A DNA stretch of 64,000 bases from Chloroflexota bacterium (GTDB lineage: Bacteria; Chloroflexota; Limnocylindria; Limnocylindrales; CSP1-4): positions 36,655-100,654 of the forward strand of contig DAOTUU010000035.1 of assembly GCA_034436555.1 (NCBI GenBank). The letters are read 5' to 3'. The notes beneath the pieces are model-generated. The model saw only the letters and a program-made list of their open reading frames with translations. It did not search any database and was not told the DNA's origin. The number at the start of each line of letters is the position of its first letter. Positions within the stretch are counted from its first letter, which is position 1. Both the position numbers and the translations under genes were made by a program. This document shows positions 10,075-58,610 of this stretch, piece by piece.

Positions 10075-10128
10075 CGCCCTCGCGGCTGGGTGGGTCGACC
10101 GTCGGGGTGATGGGTCGGTCCGACCGCC

Positions 10129-10175
10129 GGGGCTCCGGGGGCGGGCGGGGCTCCGGGGGCGGGCGGGGCGCCGGG
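10129..10175. repeat. 18-bp GC-rich tandem repeat GGGGCTCCGGGGGCGGGC x2 plus a degenerate third copy, between the ABC ATPase and the PhzF gene.
   Basis: Direct reading of the sequence. Confidence 0.7.
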
Positions 10176-16672: not shown

Positions 16673-17254
16673 TCAGGAGGGCACGACGTCCGAGACGAAT
16701 CCGGCGCAGCGATTGGCCACGCCGCCGTCACGCTTGGCGTGGTAGTCCACGAGGATGGTGCGCGTCCCCTGCACCGATGCATCCGCGCGATACCAGATCA
16801 GCCTCAGGGCGAGCCGGAAGGGCCGCTTCGGCTGGTCCTTGGGGCCGAACGTGGTGAGACCGCCGGGCAGCGTCGCCGCATGGGCGGAGGTGGCGCCGCC
16901 GCTGATGAGGGCTCCCTTGCGGACGGTGACCCACGCATGACCGATCTTGTGCTGGATGATCGGCCGGTAGCCCACCGAGCGGACGGACGCGCTCGTCCCC
17001 TTGATCTTCACGGGGTTGCGCAGGCGGATCCCGGTGAGGTACGTGCCGCCGGCCGTGCCGCCCCCGTCATAGGAGCAGTCCGCCGCGGGGTTGGATGCGC
17101 TGTCCTTCAGGGTCCAGGTGCCCGGCGAGCCGGTGTGTGAGACCTGATGGTCGGCCAGGGCGGCGCCGCTGGGCAGGGCCAGGGCGGCGATCGCGAGCGT
17201 GGTGACCGCGAGGGGGCGGAGCGAGGGGCGCAGGGGGCGGAGCGAGGGGCGCAT
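16673..17254 (-). CDS. Secreted hypothetical protein (193 aa). N-terminal 7-aa tandem duplication RPSLRPL x2.
   Basis: ORF 16673..17254 (-). Strong RBS AGGAGGA 7 nt upstream. Signal peptide present. The 21-bp DNA tandem duplication at 17211-17252 abuts the ATG. Confidence 0.65.
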   Translation of the reverse strand: MRPSLRPLRPSLRPLAVTTLAIAALALPSGAALADHQVSHTGSPGTWTLKDSASNPAADCSYDGGGTAGGTYLTGIRLRNPVKIKGTSASVRSVGYRPIIQHKIGHAWVTVRKGALISGGATSAHAATLPGGLTTFGPKDQPKRPFRLALRLIWYRADASVQGTRTILVDYHAKRDGGVANRCAGFVSDVVPS

Positions 17255-24299: not shown

Positions 24300-26149
24300 G
24301 CCTCCTCGTCCGGCTGCTGCTCCTCGATGAGGTCGGACAGGCCCTTGCCCGCAGGCATCATCGGGAACACGTTCTGGGTCTCAGCGATCTCGAACCAGAC
24401 CATCGCGGGGCCATCGTGAGCCTGGGCGGCGCGGATCGCCGGGTCCACCTCGGCCGGGGTGCGCGCCCGGAAGCAGGGCAGCCCGTAGGCTTCTGCCAGC
24501 TTCGCCCAGTCCGGTCCGGGCAGGTGCGAGGAGTGGAAGTTGCCGCCGTACACGATCTCCTGCCACTGGCGGATCATGCCCAGCTTCTTGTTGTCCATGA
24601 GGGCGACCTTCACGGGGATGCCGTCCGCCACGCAGGTCATCAGCTCCTGGCTGACCATCTGGAGGCCGCCGTCCCCGGCCACCGCCCAGGCCTCCTTGTC
24701 GGGCCGGCCCAGCGCGGCGCCCATGGCCGCGGGGAGCGCGAAGCCCATCGTGCCCAGGCCGCCGCTCGAGAGGTGCGAGTCGGGTCGCCGGAACCCCGCG
24801 TAGCGCGCCACCCACATCTGGTTCTGGCCCACGTCCGCGACCAGGTTGGCGTCGTGGTCGGTCAGCTCGCCCAGGCGCGCCATCACGTAGTCGGCGGACA
24901 GGAGGCCGTCCCGCCAGGCACCAGAGCCGTGCCAGCTGGCGCTCTCGGACGCCGTGCGCCACTCGGCGAGCTGCGCGCGGTAATCGGCCCGCTCGGCCGG
25001 TTCGCGCTGGCGCATCAGCGGCGTCAGGGCGCGCAGGACGCGCTTGACGTCACCCACGATGGGCACGTCCACCGCGACGTTCTTGCCGATCTCGGACGGG
25101 TCGATGTCGACATGGACGATGCGGGCCTGGGGCGCGAACGTGGAGACCTTGCCGGTGACCCGGTCGTCGAAGCGCATGCCCAGGGCGATCAGCAGGTCGG
25201 CCGACTGGATCGCCCGGTTCACGTGCTTCCAGCCGTGCATCCCCAGGTAGCCATAGGACAGCGGGTGCTGCTCGTCCATGGCGCCCACGCCCAGGAGCGT
25301 GTGGGCGACCGGGATCTGGGTCCGTTCGGCGAATGCGGCGAGCTCCGCCACGGCGTCGCCCAGCAGGATGCCATGGCCCGCGATGATGATCGGGCGCTGC
25401 GCCGCCTCGATCTCCGCCGCGGCGACCCGGATCTGGCGGGGGTGCCCGTCGAAGGTGGGCTTGAAGCCCGGCAGGTCGATGGAGTCCGGGTGGCCTGCGC
25501 GCGTCTCGGAGGTGAGCGCGTCCTTCGTGATGTCCACGTGGACGGGACCCGGACGTCCGGTCTGGGCGATGTGGAACGCCTCCGCGATCACGCGCGGGAT
25601 GTCGTCGGCGCTGCGCACCAGGAAGTTGTGCTTGGTCATCGGCAGCGTGATGCCGGTGATGTCGATCTCCTGGAAGGCGTCCTTGCCGATGAGCGCTCCG
25701 GGCACGTTGCCGGTGATGGCGACCATGGGGATGCTGTCCAGCTGCGCGGTGGCGATGCCGGTGACCAGGTTCGTGGCGCCCGGACCGCTCGTGCCCAGGC
25801 ACACGCCGACCCGTCGGCTGGCGCGCGCGTAGCCGTCGGCGGCGTGTGCGGCACCCTGCTCGTGACGCACCAGGACGTGACGGATCTGGGGGTAGTCCTG
25901 CCACAGGTCGTAGAGCGGCAGGATGACCCCGCCGGGGTAGCCGAAGATCGTGTCGACGCCCTGGCGGATGAGCGCCTCGCACAGGGCGTCCGCACCGATG
26001 CGCGTGCGGTTGCGCGGCCGCGCGTCGGACAGCATCGCGGTGCGGGCGCGCTCGATCTCCGCGGCCGCCTCCGTGCCTGCGTTCGGGACGTGGCGCCCGA
26101 CGCCGGTCGCGGGCGCCCGCCCGGACCTGGGTTGCTGCTCGGTGGTCAT
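24296..26149 (-). CDS. ilvB: Acetolactate synthase large subunit
   Basis: ORF 24296..26224 (-). TPP-enzyme motifs GDGG and GYPGGVILPLYD. Start set at MTTEQQ (26149), because the upstream 25 codons run through a terminator hairpin. Confidence 0.9.
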   Translation of the reverse strand: MTTEQQPRSGRAPATGVGRHVPNAGTEAAAEIERARTAMLSDARPRNRTRIGADALCEALIRQGVDTIFGYPGGVILPLYDLWQDYPQIRHVLVRHEQGAAHAADGYARASRRVGVCLGTSGPGATNLVTGIATAQLDSIPMVAITGNVPGALIGKDAFQEIDITGITLPMTKHNFLVRSADDIPRVIAEAFHIAQTGRPGPVHVDITKDALTSETRAGHPDSIDLPGFKPTFDGHPRQIRVAAAEIEAAQRPIIIAGHGILLGDAVAELAAFAERTQIPVAHTLLGVGAMDEQHPLSYGYLGMHGWKHVNRAIQSADLLIALGMRFDDRVTGKVSTFAPQARIVHVDIDPSEIGKNVAVDVPIVGDVKRVLRALTPLMRQREPAERADYRAQLAEWRTASESASWHGSGAWRDGLLSADYVMARLGELTDHDANLVADVGQNQMWVARYAGFRRPDSHLSSGGLGTMGFALPAAMGAALGRPDKEAWAVAGDGGLQMVSQELMTCVADGIPVKVALMDNKKLGMIRQWQEIVYGGNFHSSHLPGPDWAKLAEAYGLPCFRARTPAEVDPAIRAAQAHDGPAMVWFEIAETQNVFPMMPAGKGLSDLIEEQQPDEEA

Positions 26150-26200
26150 CGTTCCCTCTCTGGTGTCGTCGCTGCCGTGGTTGGTGCTCGTCGGGGTGAG

Positions 26201-26237
26201 GGACAAACAAAAGACCCTCGCCATCCCGGCGAGGGTC
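26201..26237 (-). terminator. Rho-independent terminator-like hairpin (10-bp GC stem GACCCTCGCC/GGCGAGGGTC, 5-nt loop) followed on the minus strand by UUUUGUUUGU, about 50 nt upstream of the ilvB start. Candidate leader attenuator.
   Basis: Direct reading. Orientation and position match classic ilvB leader attenuators. Confidence 0.5.
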
Positions 26238-26639
26238 CGCTGGTGGTTCGCGGTGTCGGGTCCGCGCTCGCGGCGCGCCCTACCTCCGCCTTCCGCCAGA
26301 CTCCCGCCGGGAGCCGGTGAGAAGGGCGAGAAGCCCGAGCGCTACGAGCTCGAGCTTCGCCAGGATGGATACCTCGGCCGGATCGGGCAGGCGAACGGGC
26401 ACGCGAGAACCGTCAGCGCGGATGGCGATGGCGGCGAGCTTGCGGTTCCGATCGGTCTGGCCCATTGGCCGAGAGCGCTCCTTCCTGATGGAGGTGTGCG
26501 GCGACTGTACACGACTCTCCGCCTGCGTGTCCAGCATGGACGGGGGTCCCTGCTGGCTCCGACGATGGTCAGGGTGGGTGCGGTGGGGTTCGGTTCGGAG
26601 GGTTGGGTTCCCGCGACGGGTGCCCGCGATGGCCGCTGC

Positions 26640-27065
26640 CACCGGCGGGCGGCCGTGGTCGACATGTCGGCCGGGGGCGGGGTGCGGCGCGGGCGGCGGC
26701 ACTCCCACGCCCGGCCCCGGCGGCCCAGACCCGGCGTCGGCGGCACTGGTCGGGGGCGGCCGACCCGGCCGCGGCCGTGGTCGACATGTCGACCGGGGGC
26801 GGGGTGCGGCGCGGTCCCGACGCCCGGCGACGCCCGCCACCGGCGGCACTGGTCGACATGTCGACCGCGAGCGGGTGCCCGGGATGCACCTTCCGCCATC
26901 AGGCCGGGTGTCGGTCGGCATGTCGACCGGGAGCGGGGTGCGGCGCGGCCCCGACCCGGCGTCGGGCATCTGCCACCGGCGGCCCTGGTCGACATGTCGG
27001 CCGGGAGCGGTACCCGGGATGCACCTTCCGCCATCAGGCCGGGTGTCGGTCGACATGTCGACCGT
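26640..27065. repeat. GC-rich tandem repeat block with 6 copies of the 14-bp palindrome GTCGACATGTCG(A/G)C. Includes a 135-bp higher-order unit x2 (26780-26913 and 26914-27048) plus a related 122-bp copy.
   Basis: Palindrome copies at 26658, 26780, 26852, 26914, 26988 and 27049. Two alternating spacer types, A (CGGGRGCGGGGTGCGGCGCGG...) and B (...GGGATGCACCTTCCGCCATCAGGCCGGGTGTCG). Confidence 0.85.
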
Positions 27066-27102
27066 CCCGCCCCCCACCTATCCACATCCGGTGAAGTCCG
27101 AG

Positions 27103-27894
27103 ATGAGTGCCACCGTGCACGATCGACGGATGCCTGCGATCACACAAGCACGGACCCGACCCGCACGCGCGGGCGCACGCCTCGGCCGCGATCTGCGGTA
27201 TGACGTCGGACGCGAGATCCGCCGGATGCGGATGGACGCCGGACTCTCTGCTCGCGCCGTGGCACAGGCGGCTGGGATCAGCCACTCCACGCTGCTCGCC
27301 CTCGAGGCAGGGACCTTCGACCCGACCGTCGAGGTAGTCGCGCGCGTGAGCTCGGTGCTCGGATGCCGGGTCGGACTCCGTCTCCACCCGGGCGCGGGTC
27401 CGGCGCTCCGCGATCACCTCCAGACTGCGATGGTCCAGGGATTCCTGCCGGACGTCGGAGCGGGATGGCATCGATCCTTGGAGGTCCCAGTCTTCCGACC
27501 GATCCGCGGCTACATCGATCTCGCCCTGGAGCGCGGTGCCGACCCGATCGGAGTGGCGGTGGAGTCGCACTCCATCCTCGAGCGTGCCGAGCAGACGCTG
27601 CGCTGGATCCATGCGAAGTCCGATGCGCTCGAGACGCGGCTGGCGGAGGATGGCCGCCCCATGCCCGTCTCCCGCATCCTCCTGTTGCGCTCCACACGCC
27701 AGAACCGGGAGGCCGTGACACTGGCGCATGACCTGTTCGCGCAGGCGTTCCCTGCTGGAATGGCAGATGCCCTGGCCGCACTCCGTGACCCGGACAGACC
27801 ATGGCCGGGGGCGGCCATCATCTGGATGGATGTGACGGGCGGCGTCGCGCGCGTGCTCAAGCACCCTCCCCCGGGGATCCGCCTCGGACGATGA
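27103..27894 (+). CDS. XRE-family HTH transcriptional regulator with a roughly 190-aa C-terminal domain of unknown function
   Basis: Internal ATG of ORF 26317..27894. HTH_XRE motif [30 protein letters not shown]. Codon usage is noticeably less GC3-biased than neighbouring genes. The last about 17 codons plus stop lie inside a repeat unit. Confidence 0.7.
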
Positions 27895-28330
27895 CGGTTC
27901 GCCGGGGGCCACAGACCCCGGGGGGCGCCGCGGGGCCGGGCGCCGGTCGACATGTCGGCCGCCGGCGGGGGCGGCGGGGCCGCAGACCCCGGGGGGCGCC
28001 GCGGGGCCGCGCCGGTCGACATGTCGGCCGCGGACGGGGGAGGCGGGGCCGCAGACCCCGGGGGGCGCCGCGGGGACGGGCGCCGGTCGACATGTCGGCC
28101 ACCGGCGGGGGCGTCGCGCGCGTGCTCAAGCACCCTCCCCCGGGGATCCGCCTCGGCCGATGACGGTTGCCGGGCGCCGCGGGGCCGGGCGCCGGTCGAC
28201 ATGTCGGCCGCGGGCGGGGCGTCGCGCGCGTGCTCAAGCACCCTCCCCCGGGGATCCGCCTCGGCCGATGACGGTTCGCCGGGAGCCGCAGACCCCGGGG
28301 GGGGGGCGACGGGCCCGCCGCGGACCACCC
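27841..28330. repeat. Second GC-rich tandem repeat block. 4 more copies of GTCGACATGTCGGC sit in roughly 70-bp units. A 58-65-bp unit carrying the XRE gene 3' end (GCGTCGCGCGCGTGCTCAAGCACCCTCCCCCGGGGATCCGCCTCGGMCGATGACGGTT) is triplicated.
   Basis: Palindromes at 27946, 28015, 28086 and 28195. The 3'-end unit lies at 27841-27905, 28110-28175 and 28218-28285. Confidence 0.85.
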
Positions 28331-28411
28331 CGGCGCGACCGCGTGCTACGCTCGACCCTCCCCGACCGCCCGCGCGGGTCCGTGCGACCCCGCCCACCAC
28401 CCAAGGGACCG

Positions 28412-29881
28412 ATGACGCACCCGACCCCTCTCCCCTCGACCCCCACCACCGGACCCCGCACCCTCGTGCGCAAGATCTGGGATGACCATGTCGTCCTGGA
28501 GGAGCCCGGGGCGCCCACCGTCATCGGCATCGACCTCCACCTCGTCCACGAGGTCACCAGCCCCCAGGCGTTCGAGGGCCTGCGCCGCCGCGGCCTCAGG
28601 GTCCGCCACCCCGAGCGGACCGTGGCCACCATGGACCACAGCACGCCCACCACGCCCGTCGGGCTGCCCATCCTGGACCAGCAGGCCGCCTTCCAGGTCG
28701 CCCAGCTGGAGCGCAACTGCGCGGAGTTCGGGGTGCCGCTCCACGCACGAGGTTCGGACACGCAGGGCATCGTCCACGTCATCGGTCCAGAGCTGGGCCT
28801 GACGCAGCCGGGCATGACCATCGTCTGCGGCGACTCCCACACCGCCACGCACGGCGCGTTCGGCGCCCTCGCCTTCGGCATCGGCACCAGCGAGGTGGAG
28901 ATGGTGCTGGCGACCCAGACGCTGCTCCAGCGCCCGCCGCGCTCGTACGCGGTCAACGTCAGCGGCCGCCTGCATCCGGGCGTCACGGCGAAGGACATCA
29001 TCCTCAGCCTCATCGCGCGCATCGGCGTGGGCGGCGGCACGGGTCACGTCTTCGAGTACGGCGGCGACGCCATCCGCGGGCTCTCGATGGAAGAGCGGAT
29101 GACCATCTGCAACATGTCCATCGAGGGTGGCGCGCGGGCGGGCCTGATCGCTCCCGACGACACCACCTTCGACTACATCCACGGCCGACCCCATGCCCCG
29201 ACCGGCATGGCCTGGGACCAGGCGGTCGCCCGCTGGCGCACCCTCCCCTCGGACCCCGGTGCGGCCCACGAGCTTTCGATCGACATCGATGCGTCCGCCC
29301 TGGAACCCATGGTCACCTACGGCACCAACCCCGGCATGGGCATCGGCATCACGGGCAGGGTGCCTGCTCCCGAGGACGCCGCGGATGCCAGCGCACGCCG
29401 GGGTCTGGAGAGCGCGCTCGCCTACATGGGCCTCCAGCCGGGCCAGGCGCTCCTGGGCCAGAAGGTCGACATCGTGTTCATCGGCTCCTGCACCAACAGC
29501 CGCATCAGCGACCTGCGCCAGGCCGCCGCGATGCTGGATGGTCGTCGCGTCGCGGACGGCGTGCGCCTGATGGTCGTGCCCGGCAGTCAGCAGGTGAAGG
29601 CCCAGGCGGAGCGGGAGGGGCTCTCGGAGATCTTCAGGGCCGCCGGCGCCGAGTGGCGCGAGTCGGGCTGCTCCATGTGCATCGCCATGAACGGCGACAT
29701 GGGCCAGGCCGGCCAGTACATCGTGAGCACCAGCAACCGCAACTTCGAGGGGCGCCAGGGCAAGGGCGCGCGCACGCTCCTCGCCTCCCCTCTCACTGCC
29801 GCCGCGTCCGCGATCGCGGGAGCGGTGAGCGATCCGCGGCCCCTCGTGGACGGCGCGCCCGCCACCGTCGGCGGCCGCTGA
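28412..29881 (+). CDS. leuC: 3-isopropylmalate dehydratase large subunit
   Basis: Internal ATG of ORF 28160..29881 with AAGGGA RBS. Aconitase-family motifs including SMCIAMNG. Confidence 0.95.
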
Positions 29882-40365: not shown

Positions 40366-40515
40366 CCGGCTCGATCGCGAGATCGCGGGGCGAGGGGCGC
40401 CGGGCGCGCAGCACACGGCGACTGACCGGCTCGATCGCGGGGCGCGGGGCGCGGGGGCGCGAGGCGCGGGGCTCGATCGCGGGGCGCGGAGCGCGGGGCG
40501 CGGGGGCGCCGGGCG
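40360..40515. repeat. GC-rich tandem repeats. A 20-bp unit GACTGACCGGCTCGATCGCG carries the last fabF codons and stop, and recurs 60 bp downstream. GCTCGATCGCGGGGCGCGG recurs with a roughly 40-bp period.
   Basis: Direct reading: 40360-40379 and 40420-40439; 40430-40448 and 40471-40489. Confidence 0.75.
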
Positions 40516-40519
40516 AGGG

Positions 40520-58099: not shown

Positions 58100-58610
58100 A
58101 TGGTTGCCGCGGGGCGGGGCGCGACGCGGCGCGGGTCGCGTGCGGGGCCGCGGGGCGGGGCGCGACGCGGCGCGGGTCGCGGGCGGGGCCGCGGGGCGGG
58201 GCGGAGCCGGGGTGGGGCCATCGAGGGACCGCGGGGCGGGGCCGCGGGGCGGGGCCGCGGGGCGGGGCCGCGGGGCACCGTCGGCCGTGCCGGGAGCCCG
58301 GGCCGATGGACGGACACGACCGACGAGGCAGGGGCCGGCGCGTGCGGTCCGGGCCGGTCATCGGCCCGGCCCGCACCGTGCGTGCCTGGGCGGGCCGGAC
58401 AGCGGCCGAATCCGACCGGATCCGGCCCAGCAGGCGTCAGGCTTGGCCGCTGGGCGGACCGCGCCGGTCGCTGGGGGGACGGGGGTCGCGGGCGGGACGC
58501 GGCGTCCGGGCGGGGCCCAGCGGCCCGGGTGCGGCCCACGCGGCGTCCGGACGGCGCGTGGGCCGAGCGGGGCCCAGCGGCCCGGGCGGGGCCCAGCGGC
58601 CGAGGCGAAG
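58100..58610. repeat. GC-rich minisatellite block in an 860-bp divergent intergenic region. Contains a 41-bp unit x2, a 13-bp unit CCGCGGGGCGGGG x3.5 giving eight consecutive GGGG tracts at 58233-58276 (G-quadruplex potential), and GGGGCCCAGCGGCCCGGG x3.
   Basis: Direct reading. All overlapping ORFs have wrong-frame-like Arg/Gly/Ala composition. Confidence 0.8.

Follow-up and report, generated by a model that had tools for sequence, protein, structure and literature searches.

Helically phased palindromes, candidate operators, flank the gene of an XRE-type protein with a nuclease-fold domain in a Chloroflexota bacterium

A 64,000-nt stretch of contig DAOTUU010000035.1 from a Chloroflexota bacterium (hereafter the window; coordinates are window positions) carries, between ilvB and leuC, a gene for a protein with an XRE-type helix-turn-helix (HTH) domain, with palindromes arranged in tandem units on both sides of it. 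Analysis of the sequence supports these palindromes as operators of the protein encoded between the arrays, because all ten sites flank the gene, none occurs elsewhere in the 64 kb, and close relatives share the site positions. The first-pass annotation had already proposed operators for the embedded regulator, and this proposal gains support from relatives whose palindromes co-vary with the recognition helix and from a phasing of sites kept despite random spacers. Gene and sites together appear to form a lineage-specific cassette, probably of Chloroflexota, which lies between housekeeping operons, can be absent, and occurs in highly divergent alleles that each have a site of their own.

The 14-mer GTCGACATGTCGAC occurs ten times in the window at up to one mismatch (three copies are perfect), all within 26658–28208, against a mean of 0.04 copies expected by chance from dinucleotide-preserving shuffles. 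Six copies lie upstream of the gene (26658, 26780, 26852, 26914, 26988 and 27049) and four downstream (27946, 28015, 28086 and 28195). No copy was found outside the cassette within the 64 kb at up to two mismatches, and the five further matches that appear elsewhere when three mismatches are allowed are inside the shuffled range. The conserved unit is longer than the 14-mer, extending to a 16–18-mer (Y)GGTCGACATGTCGRCC(G). The upstream array (26649–27064) contains six 16-bp palindromes GGTCGACATGTCGRCC with centre spacings of 122, 72, 62, 74 and 61 bp; units of about 73 and about 62 bp alternate in it, giving a 135-bp higher-order repeat. Four palindromes GGTCGACATGTCGGCC, spaced by 69, 71 and 109 bp, make up the downstream array (27841–28302). 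Tandem Repeats Finder detects periods of 135 bp (2.1 copies, 26779–27064) and 62 bp (3.3 copies, 26851–27064) upstream, and of 69 bp (2.9 copies, 27905–28111) and 108 bp (2.1 copies, 28063–28289) downstream. The array units are up to 89–93% identical to each other, and the spacers are themselves repeated (up to 93% identity). In addition, the last 17–18 codons of the gene together with its stop codon are present in two extra copies, at 28107–28160 and 28218–28268, identical at the amino-acid level; taken as units of the final 54 bp plus stop (original at 27841–27904), these copies span 28110–28172 and 28218–28281 and are interleaved with the downstream palindromes. The first-pass annotation had described about ten palindrome copies, higher-order tandem units including a 122-bp relative, and a gene end triplicated with its stop codon, all of which these counts bear out.

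The gene (27130–27894, forward strand) encodes a protein of 254 aa. Translation most likely starts at the conserved ATG at 27130 (MPAITQ...), shared with homologues, and not at the in-frame upstream ATG at 27103 chosen previously. With residues numbered from 27103, the protein is composed of an N-terminal Arg-rich arm, an XRE/Cro-type HTH domain (35–89) and a C-terminal domain of PD-(D/E)XK fold (approximately 103–263). The HTH domain is of the HTH_3/HTH_31 type with five helices, placing the protein by domain in the XRE/Cro-C1 group. Pfam matches are limited to XRE-type HTH models, the remaining ~170 residues having no match even at E up to 10; in NCBIfam and PADLOC, too, only the HTH domain was matched. 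The AlphaFold2 model has a predicted local distance difference test (pLDDT) score of 90.7 at full length and of 94.9 for the isolated C-terminal domain, which displays the alpha-beta-beta-beta-alpha-beta core of the PD-(D/E)XK fold at 8–16% sequence identity to known proteins of this class. The conserved Arg-rich arm (P-R-T-R/K) is followed by a long helix (model residues 19–46) ahead of the HTH domain; this N-terminal region spans window positions 27130–27230 (residues 10–45), and it might touch the centre of the palindrome or aid dimerisation.

Eleven residues, namely D104, E127, D139, E154, E163, R167, K172, R196, W234, G236 and W241, are at least 98% conserved in 81 family members, whereas the recognition helix, unlike these C-terminal residues, is highly variable across the family. 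For the catalytic motif D...(D/E)xK, 81 of the 82 sequences have D139 and 80 have E154; their lysine position is occupied by Q (51), H (19) or E (8), and another lysine, K172 on the helix that follows, is shared by 81. Active PD-(D/E)XK enzymes with Q or E at the lysine position are known, BglII and BamHI among them. The nuclease active site appears intact in sequence, and the whole nuclease-fold domain had been overlooked in the first-pass annotation. The ratio of nonsynonymous to synonymous divergence (dN/dS) of the XRE gene is 0.15–0.27, indicating that the gene is functional and under purifying selection. Its GC content at third codon positions (GC3) of 0.79 is lower than that of its neighbours (0.91–0.95; leuC 0.93, leuD 0.93, ilvN 0.95), as had been noted earlier. 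A candidate promoter for the gene, TCCACA-17 bp-TGAGTG (27081–27109, forward strand), is a block whose position is conserved in five orthologous loci; it was read off the sequences directly, and a sigma-70 scan did not find it.

A word-indexed search yielded 25 homologues, and an exhaustive profile search, run against 1.84 billion cluster representatives, defined a family of 254 clusters (50% identity) with E no higher than 1e-30; full-length members are nearly all about 250 aa long. A metagenome scan with an 11-sequence alignment provided 80 loci with DNA; loci are designated below by L numbers. The family is probably of Chloroflexota and apparently limited to uncultured high-GC bacteria; LeuC proteins 77–80% identical to that of the window bear the source labels Chloroflexota or Candidatus Limnocylindria. 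Collections of 72,556 plasmids and 50,697 phages, as well as viral contigs, yielded no full-length relative: the plasmid and phage sets match the HTH domain only, and in viral contigs the 14-mer gives just single chance matches.

Relatives carry palindromes of their own. L001, with a 74% identical protein, has the identical 16-mer, GGTCGACATGTCGACC, at two upstream sites and one downstream site, and its gene 3′ end is duplicated across a site. L322 (73%) has TTCGACATGTCGCACG in at least four upstream copies, the contig ending inside the array, and in three downstream copies, the period of the locus being 62 bp; its downstream neighbours are response-regulator genes, not leuC. In L324 (54%) the palindrome is GGTCG-TCATGC-CGACC (one upstream, three downstream, period 71–72 bp), and in L323 (60%) GGTCG-N6-CGACC (one upstream and one directly after the stop codon). 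More distant members, 33–49% identical, show unrelated palindromes, again in repeated copies beside the gene: GTTGACC-N3-GGTCAAC (L002, L012 and L024), GTTCGGGC-g-GCCCGAAC (L006 and L008, with a variant in L328), CGTTCCTCG-t-CGAGGAACG (L009), GAGGACTG-g-CAGTCCTC (L007), GGTGCATC-g-GATGCACC (L046), TTCGCTG-g-CAGCGAA (L014) and GTGAC-N5-GTCAC (L051). A relative sampled via LeuC rather than via the XRE protein also possesses the gene, together with four GTTCGGC-tg-GCCGAAC sites 69–76 bp apart. Palindrome length ranges from 15 to 21 bp across members, and the first downstream site often begins 1–28 bp past the stop codon.

From these loci about 20 pairs of recognition helix (residues 59–68 in the window protein) and half-site were read off, such as ISHSTLL with GGTCGAC and IDHGFLS with GTTGACC. 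Half-site similarity follows recognition-helix similarity with a Spearman rho of 0.41, compared with 0.23 for similarity of the C-terminal domain (210 pairs), and proteins only 53–59% identical overall but with 90% identical helices have half-sites that are 88% identical. The L001 contig (11.5 kb) contains one further match, with two mismatches, about 4.7 kb downstream, and the L002 contig (12.7 kb) has none outside the cassette. Across genome contigs, the 18-mer YGGTCGACATGTCGRCCG is found in at least 117 stretches from unrelated taxa, chiefly Streptomyces and Proteobacteria, each match being single and of a chance type, with no array among the matches listed. Many different Streptomyces genomes contain it in single copy (loci L205–L321, among the matches listed), and these copies may reflect a conserved coding segment rather than chance.

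The sites are also helically phased. Among 42 centre-to-centre spacings in 19 arrays, values of 61–63 bp (about 18) and 71–74 bp (about 11) dominate, the remaining ones being 41, 44, 52, 83, 104, 109, 122, 135, 136, 145 and 186 bp. With the Rayleigh statistic, the strongest signal comes at a period of 10.4 bp (R = 0.78, phase near 0), a value reached by none of 5000 random sets. A palindrome-blind autocorrelation of repeated 12-mers in the flanks of 70 loci, counting each locus once per offset, has its maxima at 62 bp (in 13 of the 70) and at 71–73 bp; the 54 loci that played no part in defining sites show these maxima as well, and coding regions have no peak. L002 is particularly informative: its sites are 93% identical and its spacers 53% identical, equal to a shuffled baseline of 56%, and the spacings are still 62, 63 and 73 bp. 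Since the spacers of L002 are randomised while sites and spacing are retained, both site sequence and phase are kept by selection, beyond inheritance from recent duplication. A distance of six or seven helical turns falls in the range over which repressor tetramers are known to make tight loops in vivo that depend on phase (PMC1762422).

On balance, we lean towards a self-contained cassette in which dimers would bind cooperatively to operators in helical phase, with the C-terminal domain as the probable bridge, and would thereby control the expression of their own gene and block read-through. A dimer of the XRE-type protein would bind each 16-bp palindrome (halves GGTCGACA and TGTCGACC), and sites six or seven turns apart (about 62 or 73 bp) would place all dimers on the same face of the DNA. 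Bridging of neighbouring dimers by the PD-(D/E)XK-fold domain may then produce tight loops or a wrapped complex on each flank, possibly also between the flanks, enclosing the 0.8-kb gene. Two outputs can be envisaged: autoregulation via the proximal upstream sites, and a roadblock or insulator right past the stop codon, a place with no predicted intrinsic terminator. The arrays of the window have recently grown by tandem duplication through G/C-rich microhomology, copying the 3′ end of the gene in the process.

Several observations weigh against this model. The centre of the proximal palindrome is located about 55–69 bp upstream of the putative XRE transcription start, missing the candidate −35 and −10 elements, and its phase there is not conserved, so that simple steric repression is not evident. 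The near-invariant D/E/E/K residues would be unneeded for bridging and seem to point to catalysis. Strict criteria detect repeated palindromes in no more than about 20 of approximately 75 non-redundant loci, many contigs being too short to judge; a permissive search (up to three mismatches, any 16-mer) gave mostly GC-rich noise. Neither the co-variation pairs nor the spacings are phylogenetically independent, so that for the co-variation the direction alone, not the p-values, can be trusted, and the downstream spacings of the window (69, 71 and 109 bp) fit the 10.4-bp lattice worse than most. Further sites outside the 64 kb, as in a regulon, are possible too. The model also leaves the acidic nuclease residues and the mosaicism of alleles unexplained, and a selfish or mobile nuclease therefore stays alive as an explanation.

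In the window, the cassette is bordered by an acetolactate-synthase large subunit with three thiamine pyrophosphate (TPP) domains and an aconitase-family LeuC, in agreement with the flanks named in the first-pass annotation. Comparison of orthologous ilvB–leuC intergenic regions reveals presence/absence polymorphism: L001 is filled, while L326 and L327 (LeuC 85% identical) are empty, containing ilvB, a small open reading frame (ORF) and leuC with only about 40 bp between the divergent promoters. The 1.8 kb found in the window is therefore extra DNA, as had been suspected for a place where a short divergent-promoter region was expected. The empty allele lacks any known family palindrome. It is about 79% identical in the flank to the closest occupied allele, and junctions or a target-site duplication cannot be drawn at this divergence. 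Just upstream of the leuC TACGCT element, the empty allele (L326 4021–4501, L327 1862–2342) has a perfect 14-bp palindrome, GCCCGCGCGCGGGC; the related CCCGCGCGGG occurs in the leuC leader of the window (about 28372–28381), L001 and L325, and the two may represent a separate conserved control element of leuC.

Alleles of the cassette have histories distinct from their flanks. L009 and L013 share leuC at 95.7% DNA identity (synonymous divergence, dS, 0.18; identical over 204 aa), whereas their XRE genes are only 66% identical in DNA (dS 1.28; 59% protein identity). The break in divergence between L009 and L013, also seen between L006 and L013, is located some 63 bp ahead of the start codon of leuC. 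Between the window and L001, dS is 1.17 for the XRE gene (dN/dS 0.19), compared with 0.53 for leuC and 0.50 for ilvB. Weaker codon bias can explain part of this two-fold excess, but not the seven-fold one. The XRE alleles are thus much older than their flanks, through either exchange of cassettes via conserved flanks or long-lived divergent alleles.

Window and L001 are collinear in three blocks (26202–26657, 27048–27894 and 28336–28414), with about 345 bp of upstream array and about 285 bp of downstream array extra in the window. The ten copies in the window are a recent expansion of a simpler arrangement, because its units are up to 89–93% identical and L323 has one site per side. The junctions of array units share G/C-rich microhomology, as read from the sequence. 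The gene end was triplicated as a by-product of this expansion, because the first downstream site is close to the stop codon; duplication of the gene end across a site took place independently in the window, L001 and L322. Contigs of the family are often about 1 kb long or end in or near an array (L322 at position 1, L324 at position 14, L325 at position 1, as well as the roughly 1-kb contigs of P0002, P0004 and P0006). This suggests that array expansions are common and break assemblies, and true array lengths may be underestimated.

Among the other explanations, a selfish or mobile nuclease cassette is possible, although we consider it doubtful: a site-specific endonuclease or nickase, akin to a free-standing homing endonuclease or a cut-out enzyme, would cut or synapse at the arrays, leading to exchange, excision and spread, and repair of the breaks would generate expansions and gene-end duplications. 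Such an activity would account for the fold with its near-invariant E127, D139, E154-x-Q/H, E163 and K172, for presence and absence in a conserved slot, for the mosaic pairing of an XRE dS of 1.28 with a leuC dS of 0.18, for a GC3 below that of the neighbours, for sites on both flanks with the first often right after the stop codon, and for the independent gene-end duplications of three loci. However, most genomic contexts are confined to one clade each, a pattern suggestive of mainly vertical descent; the plasmid, phage and viral-contig collections yielded no homologue, and no recombinase, transposase or other mobility gene is adjacent among the neighbours of L001 and L002. The empty site is without a known family palindrome, Q, H or E stands in place of the canonical (D/E)xK lysine, and intact cognate sites beside the gene are the opposite of the outcome expected for a homing endonuclease. 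Nor are upstream and downstream sites consistently inverted relative to each other: transposon-like inverted ends were considered and rejected, as the orientation is inverted in L324 but not in L322 or the window. An integrated-element remnant, proposed in the first-pass annotation, fits the presence/absence polymorphism and the allele mosaicism but not the purifying selection on the gene or the lack of plasmid, phage and viral homologues.

We also speculate, tentatively and without expecting it to be the correct answer, that the cassettes could represent a new class of self-targeting, hypervariable HTH–nuclease elements, in which an active site-specific nuclease or nickase would assemble on phased arrays of its own site on either side of its gene, and cleavage or synapsis at these arrays would drive changes in array copy number and the exchange or loss of whole cassettes between strains. 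Protein and site specificities would then co-diversify, somewhat like an incompatibility or kin-recognition system.

Known free-standing homing endonucleases include the PD-(D/E)XK enzyme I-Ssp6803I and the T4 seg and mob genes. The family resembles them in placing a nuclease-fold gene between conserved genes, in its presence/absence polymorphism and in its divergent alleles. It differs in the intact cognate sites flanking the gene, in the absence of a target from the sole empty allele (flank about 79% identical to the closest occupied one) and in mostly vertical descent. Compared with the HTH-guided PD-(D/E)XK nucleases FokI, SdaI and N.BspD6I and with the NucS, XisH-like and AF1548 proteins, the C-terminal domain shows 8–16% identity and no Pfam match, the lysine of (D/E)xK is replaced and nuclease activity is putative; the protein is also much smaller than FokI-type enzymes.

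A dedicated regulator of branched-chain amino-acid synthesis, whose arrays titrate it or loop over the divergent ilvB and leuC promoters, appears unlikely. The ilvB/XRE/leuC order does recur, in about 25 of 88 loci and in two family clades, and the cassette sits exactly between the two divergent promoters. However, neither promoter is overlapped by a site. On the left, a promoter-like TGGACA-18 bp-TACAGT (26504–26533, reverse strand) would serve the small ORF and the ilvB leader; homology with the cassette-free relative ends here, marking the left cassette border, and the nearest palindrome is about 125 bp away. On the right, a conserved leuC promoter/leader block (28336–28411, forward strand; 87.5% identical to L001), with a −10-like TACGCT at 28347–28352, forms the other border, the nearest palindrome lying about 120–140 bp upstream of this −10 in three genomes. 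In 11 of the 14 distinct filled intergenic regions examined, as well as in the relative without the cassette, leuC follows TGGTACGCT or a sequence close to it. A −10 element of its own, usually TACGCT, is thus retained directly upstream of leuC in most filled regions and in the empty one.

The ilvB side likewise possesses its own promoter, small ORF and terminator-like leader. The conserved small ORF (61 aa; 26280–26465, reverse strand) has an AAGGAG ribosome-binding site, lies upstream of ilvB and has no Pfam match. Together with the leader it is found with or without the cassette (L001, L327, L008, L034 and L013), and it therefore lies outside the cassette. A terminator-like hairpin with a 12-bp stem and a T-run (26212–26238, reverse strand) is situated between this ORF and the ilvB ATG at 26149 (reverse strand). 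The ilvB leader looks like an attenuator type, though 61 aa is unusually long for a leader peptide.

Gene contexts in the family also argue against a dedicated role in branched-chain amino-acid regulation. L001 has the order leuB-leuA-ilvC-ilvN-ilvB on one side and leuC-leuD on the other, with the 61-aa ORF, a SnoaL-type gene and proS as further genes; the neighbours in L002 are lhr and dha/phosphotransferase-system genes. Other clades adjoin Lhr helicase, FdhD/formate-dehydrogenase-type, deacetylase-type or response-regulator genes (identities partly read from sequence), and in a neighbour-joining tree the contexts are mostly clade-specific. The cassette is thus not tied to branched-chain amino-acid genes: whole clades are found in unrelated contexts, a relative with an 85% identical LeuC does without it, and alleles of different site specificity swap beside a near-identical leuC. 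The titration or looping device over two amino-acid promoters put forward in the first-pass annotation therefore finds no support. Known regulators of ilv/leu genes include Lrp and, upstream of leuCD in Actinobacteria, the IclR-type LtbR/NdgR; their AsnC/Lrp or IclR architecture is not shared here, where Pfam finds an XRE-type HTH only.

A defence or restriction-like nuclease, for which the arrays act as a storage or sequestration platform keeping the enzyme inactive or as a sensor scaffold, is decidedly unlikely. A nuclease fold with conserved acidic residues, an HTH domain structurally closest to restriction-modification controller proteins and hypervariable alleles in a fixed slot, as in defence hotspots, are in keeping with it. 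Nevertheless, PADLOC matches the HTH domain only, the neighbours of L001 and L002 are housekeeping genes with no methyltransferase or partner gene among them, a 16–17-bp site would almost never occur in a phage genome, and dN/dS is well below 1. Controller proteins such as C.AhdI, C.BclI and C.Esp1396I differ from the present protein, which combines HTH and nuclease fold in one polypeptide; no methyltransferase or separate endonuclease gene is nearby, and long phased arrays lie on both flanks instead of one C-box pair.

A generic repeat unlinked to the protein, whether a repetitive extragenic palindrome (REP), bacterial interspersed mosaic element (BIME), miniature inverted-repeat transposable element (MITE), neutral GC-rich minisatellite, CRISPR-like array or RNA element, is very improbable: despite other GC-rich tandem repeats in the window (from 10128, 17211, 40428, 58106 and 58506), unrelated tandem repeats in the same intergenic regions of relatives, a CRISPR-like period of 61–74 bp and unique spacers in L002, the palindrome occurs nowhere else in the 64 kb and in none of those other repeats, it co-varies with the adjacent protein over about 20 loci, sites are kept while spacers drift, the spacers of the window are themselves repeated, and there is neither a cas gene among the called neighbours of L001 and L002 nor an Rfam match. 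REP/BIME and MITE sequences are likewise short GC-rich intergenic palindromes, sometimes clustered, but the present ones are not dispersed within the 64 kb and are tied to one gene with which they co-vary. We agree with the first-pass annotation that the arrays are not CRISPR: in contrast to CRISPR, the window spacers are repeated (up to 93% identical), the repeats are degenerate, and no cas gene is present among the called L001 and L002 neighbours, the window itself not having been scanned for cas. Its suggestion of a novel minisatellite describes how the arrays of the window grew, but does not explain why arrays exist. An RNA element was dropped, as Rfam gave no match in the window as a whole with gathering thresholds, nor in 25900–28700 when E values up to 1 were admitted; a replication origin or terminus (Tus/RTP-like) was dropped as well, a GC-skew switch being absent across the window.

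The proposed self-contained cassette has partial counterparts among characterised systems. Cro/CI-type XRE repressors, which use several cooperative operators, and LacI-type loopers oligomerise through LexA/S24- or LacI-type domains, whereas a PD-(D/E)XK fold is found here; in addition, each array has up to six sites at 62/73 bp, sites are also present downstream of the stop codon, and there is no phage or prophage context. The sopC locus of F lies directly downstream of sopB and is built of 12 tandem units of 43 bp, every one containing an inverted repeat. Our arrays are similar in having tandem units with one inverted repeat each beside the gene of a putative HTH binder, and in the joint diversification of site and protein; unlike sopC/SopB, they are chromosomal, have no ParA-type ATPase among the L001 and L002 neighbours, involve a different fold and follow a 62/73-bp period. 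Nothing relevant turned up in the literature when regulators combining HTH and PD-(D/E)XK domains with phased arrays were looked for, and this HTH and nuclease-fold family is previously undescribed.

Some further features were recorded beside the cassettes. The other GC-rich tandem repeats of the window, at 10128–10175, 17211–17253, 40428–40519, 58106–58276 and 58506–58601, have periods of 18, 21, 42/15/7, 41/13 and 19 bp, respectively; the source genome seems generally prone to tandem repetition in its GC-rich DNA. After the downstream array of L322 (about 1203–1230) there is a perfect inverted repeat with 12-bp arms, GCGTCTACGTCA-ga-TGACGTAGACGC, unrelated to the XRE palindrome, which could be a terminator or a site of another protein. 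In L328, 14 copies of the hexamer GGCCGT occur at 2144–2227, near the 5′ end of ilvB; on this long-read contig both ilvB and the XRE gene are frameshifted, probably by sequencing errors.

The arrays break short-read assemblies and can be mistaken for CRISPR arrays or minisatellites. If our interpretation is true, an uncharacterised family of about 254 clusters (50% identity), in which each member comes with its own readable palindrome, would constitute a natural table of DNA-binding specificities. For DNA mechanics, it would offer a strict 62/73-bp spacing that is maintained where spacers have been randomised. The combination of a nuclease-type active site, a repressor-type domain and allele replacement in a fixed slot also hints at a possible new selfish or immunity element; should the self-targeting explanation turn out to be true, the cassette would be a chromosomal selfish or immunity module without a described counterpart.

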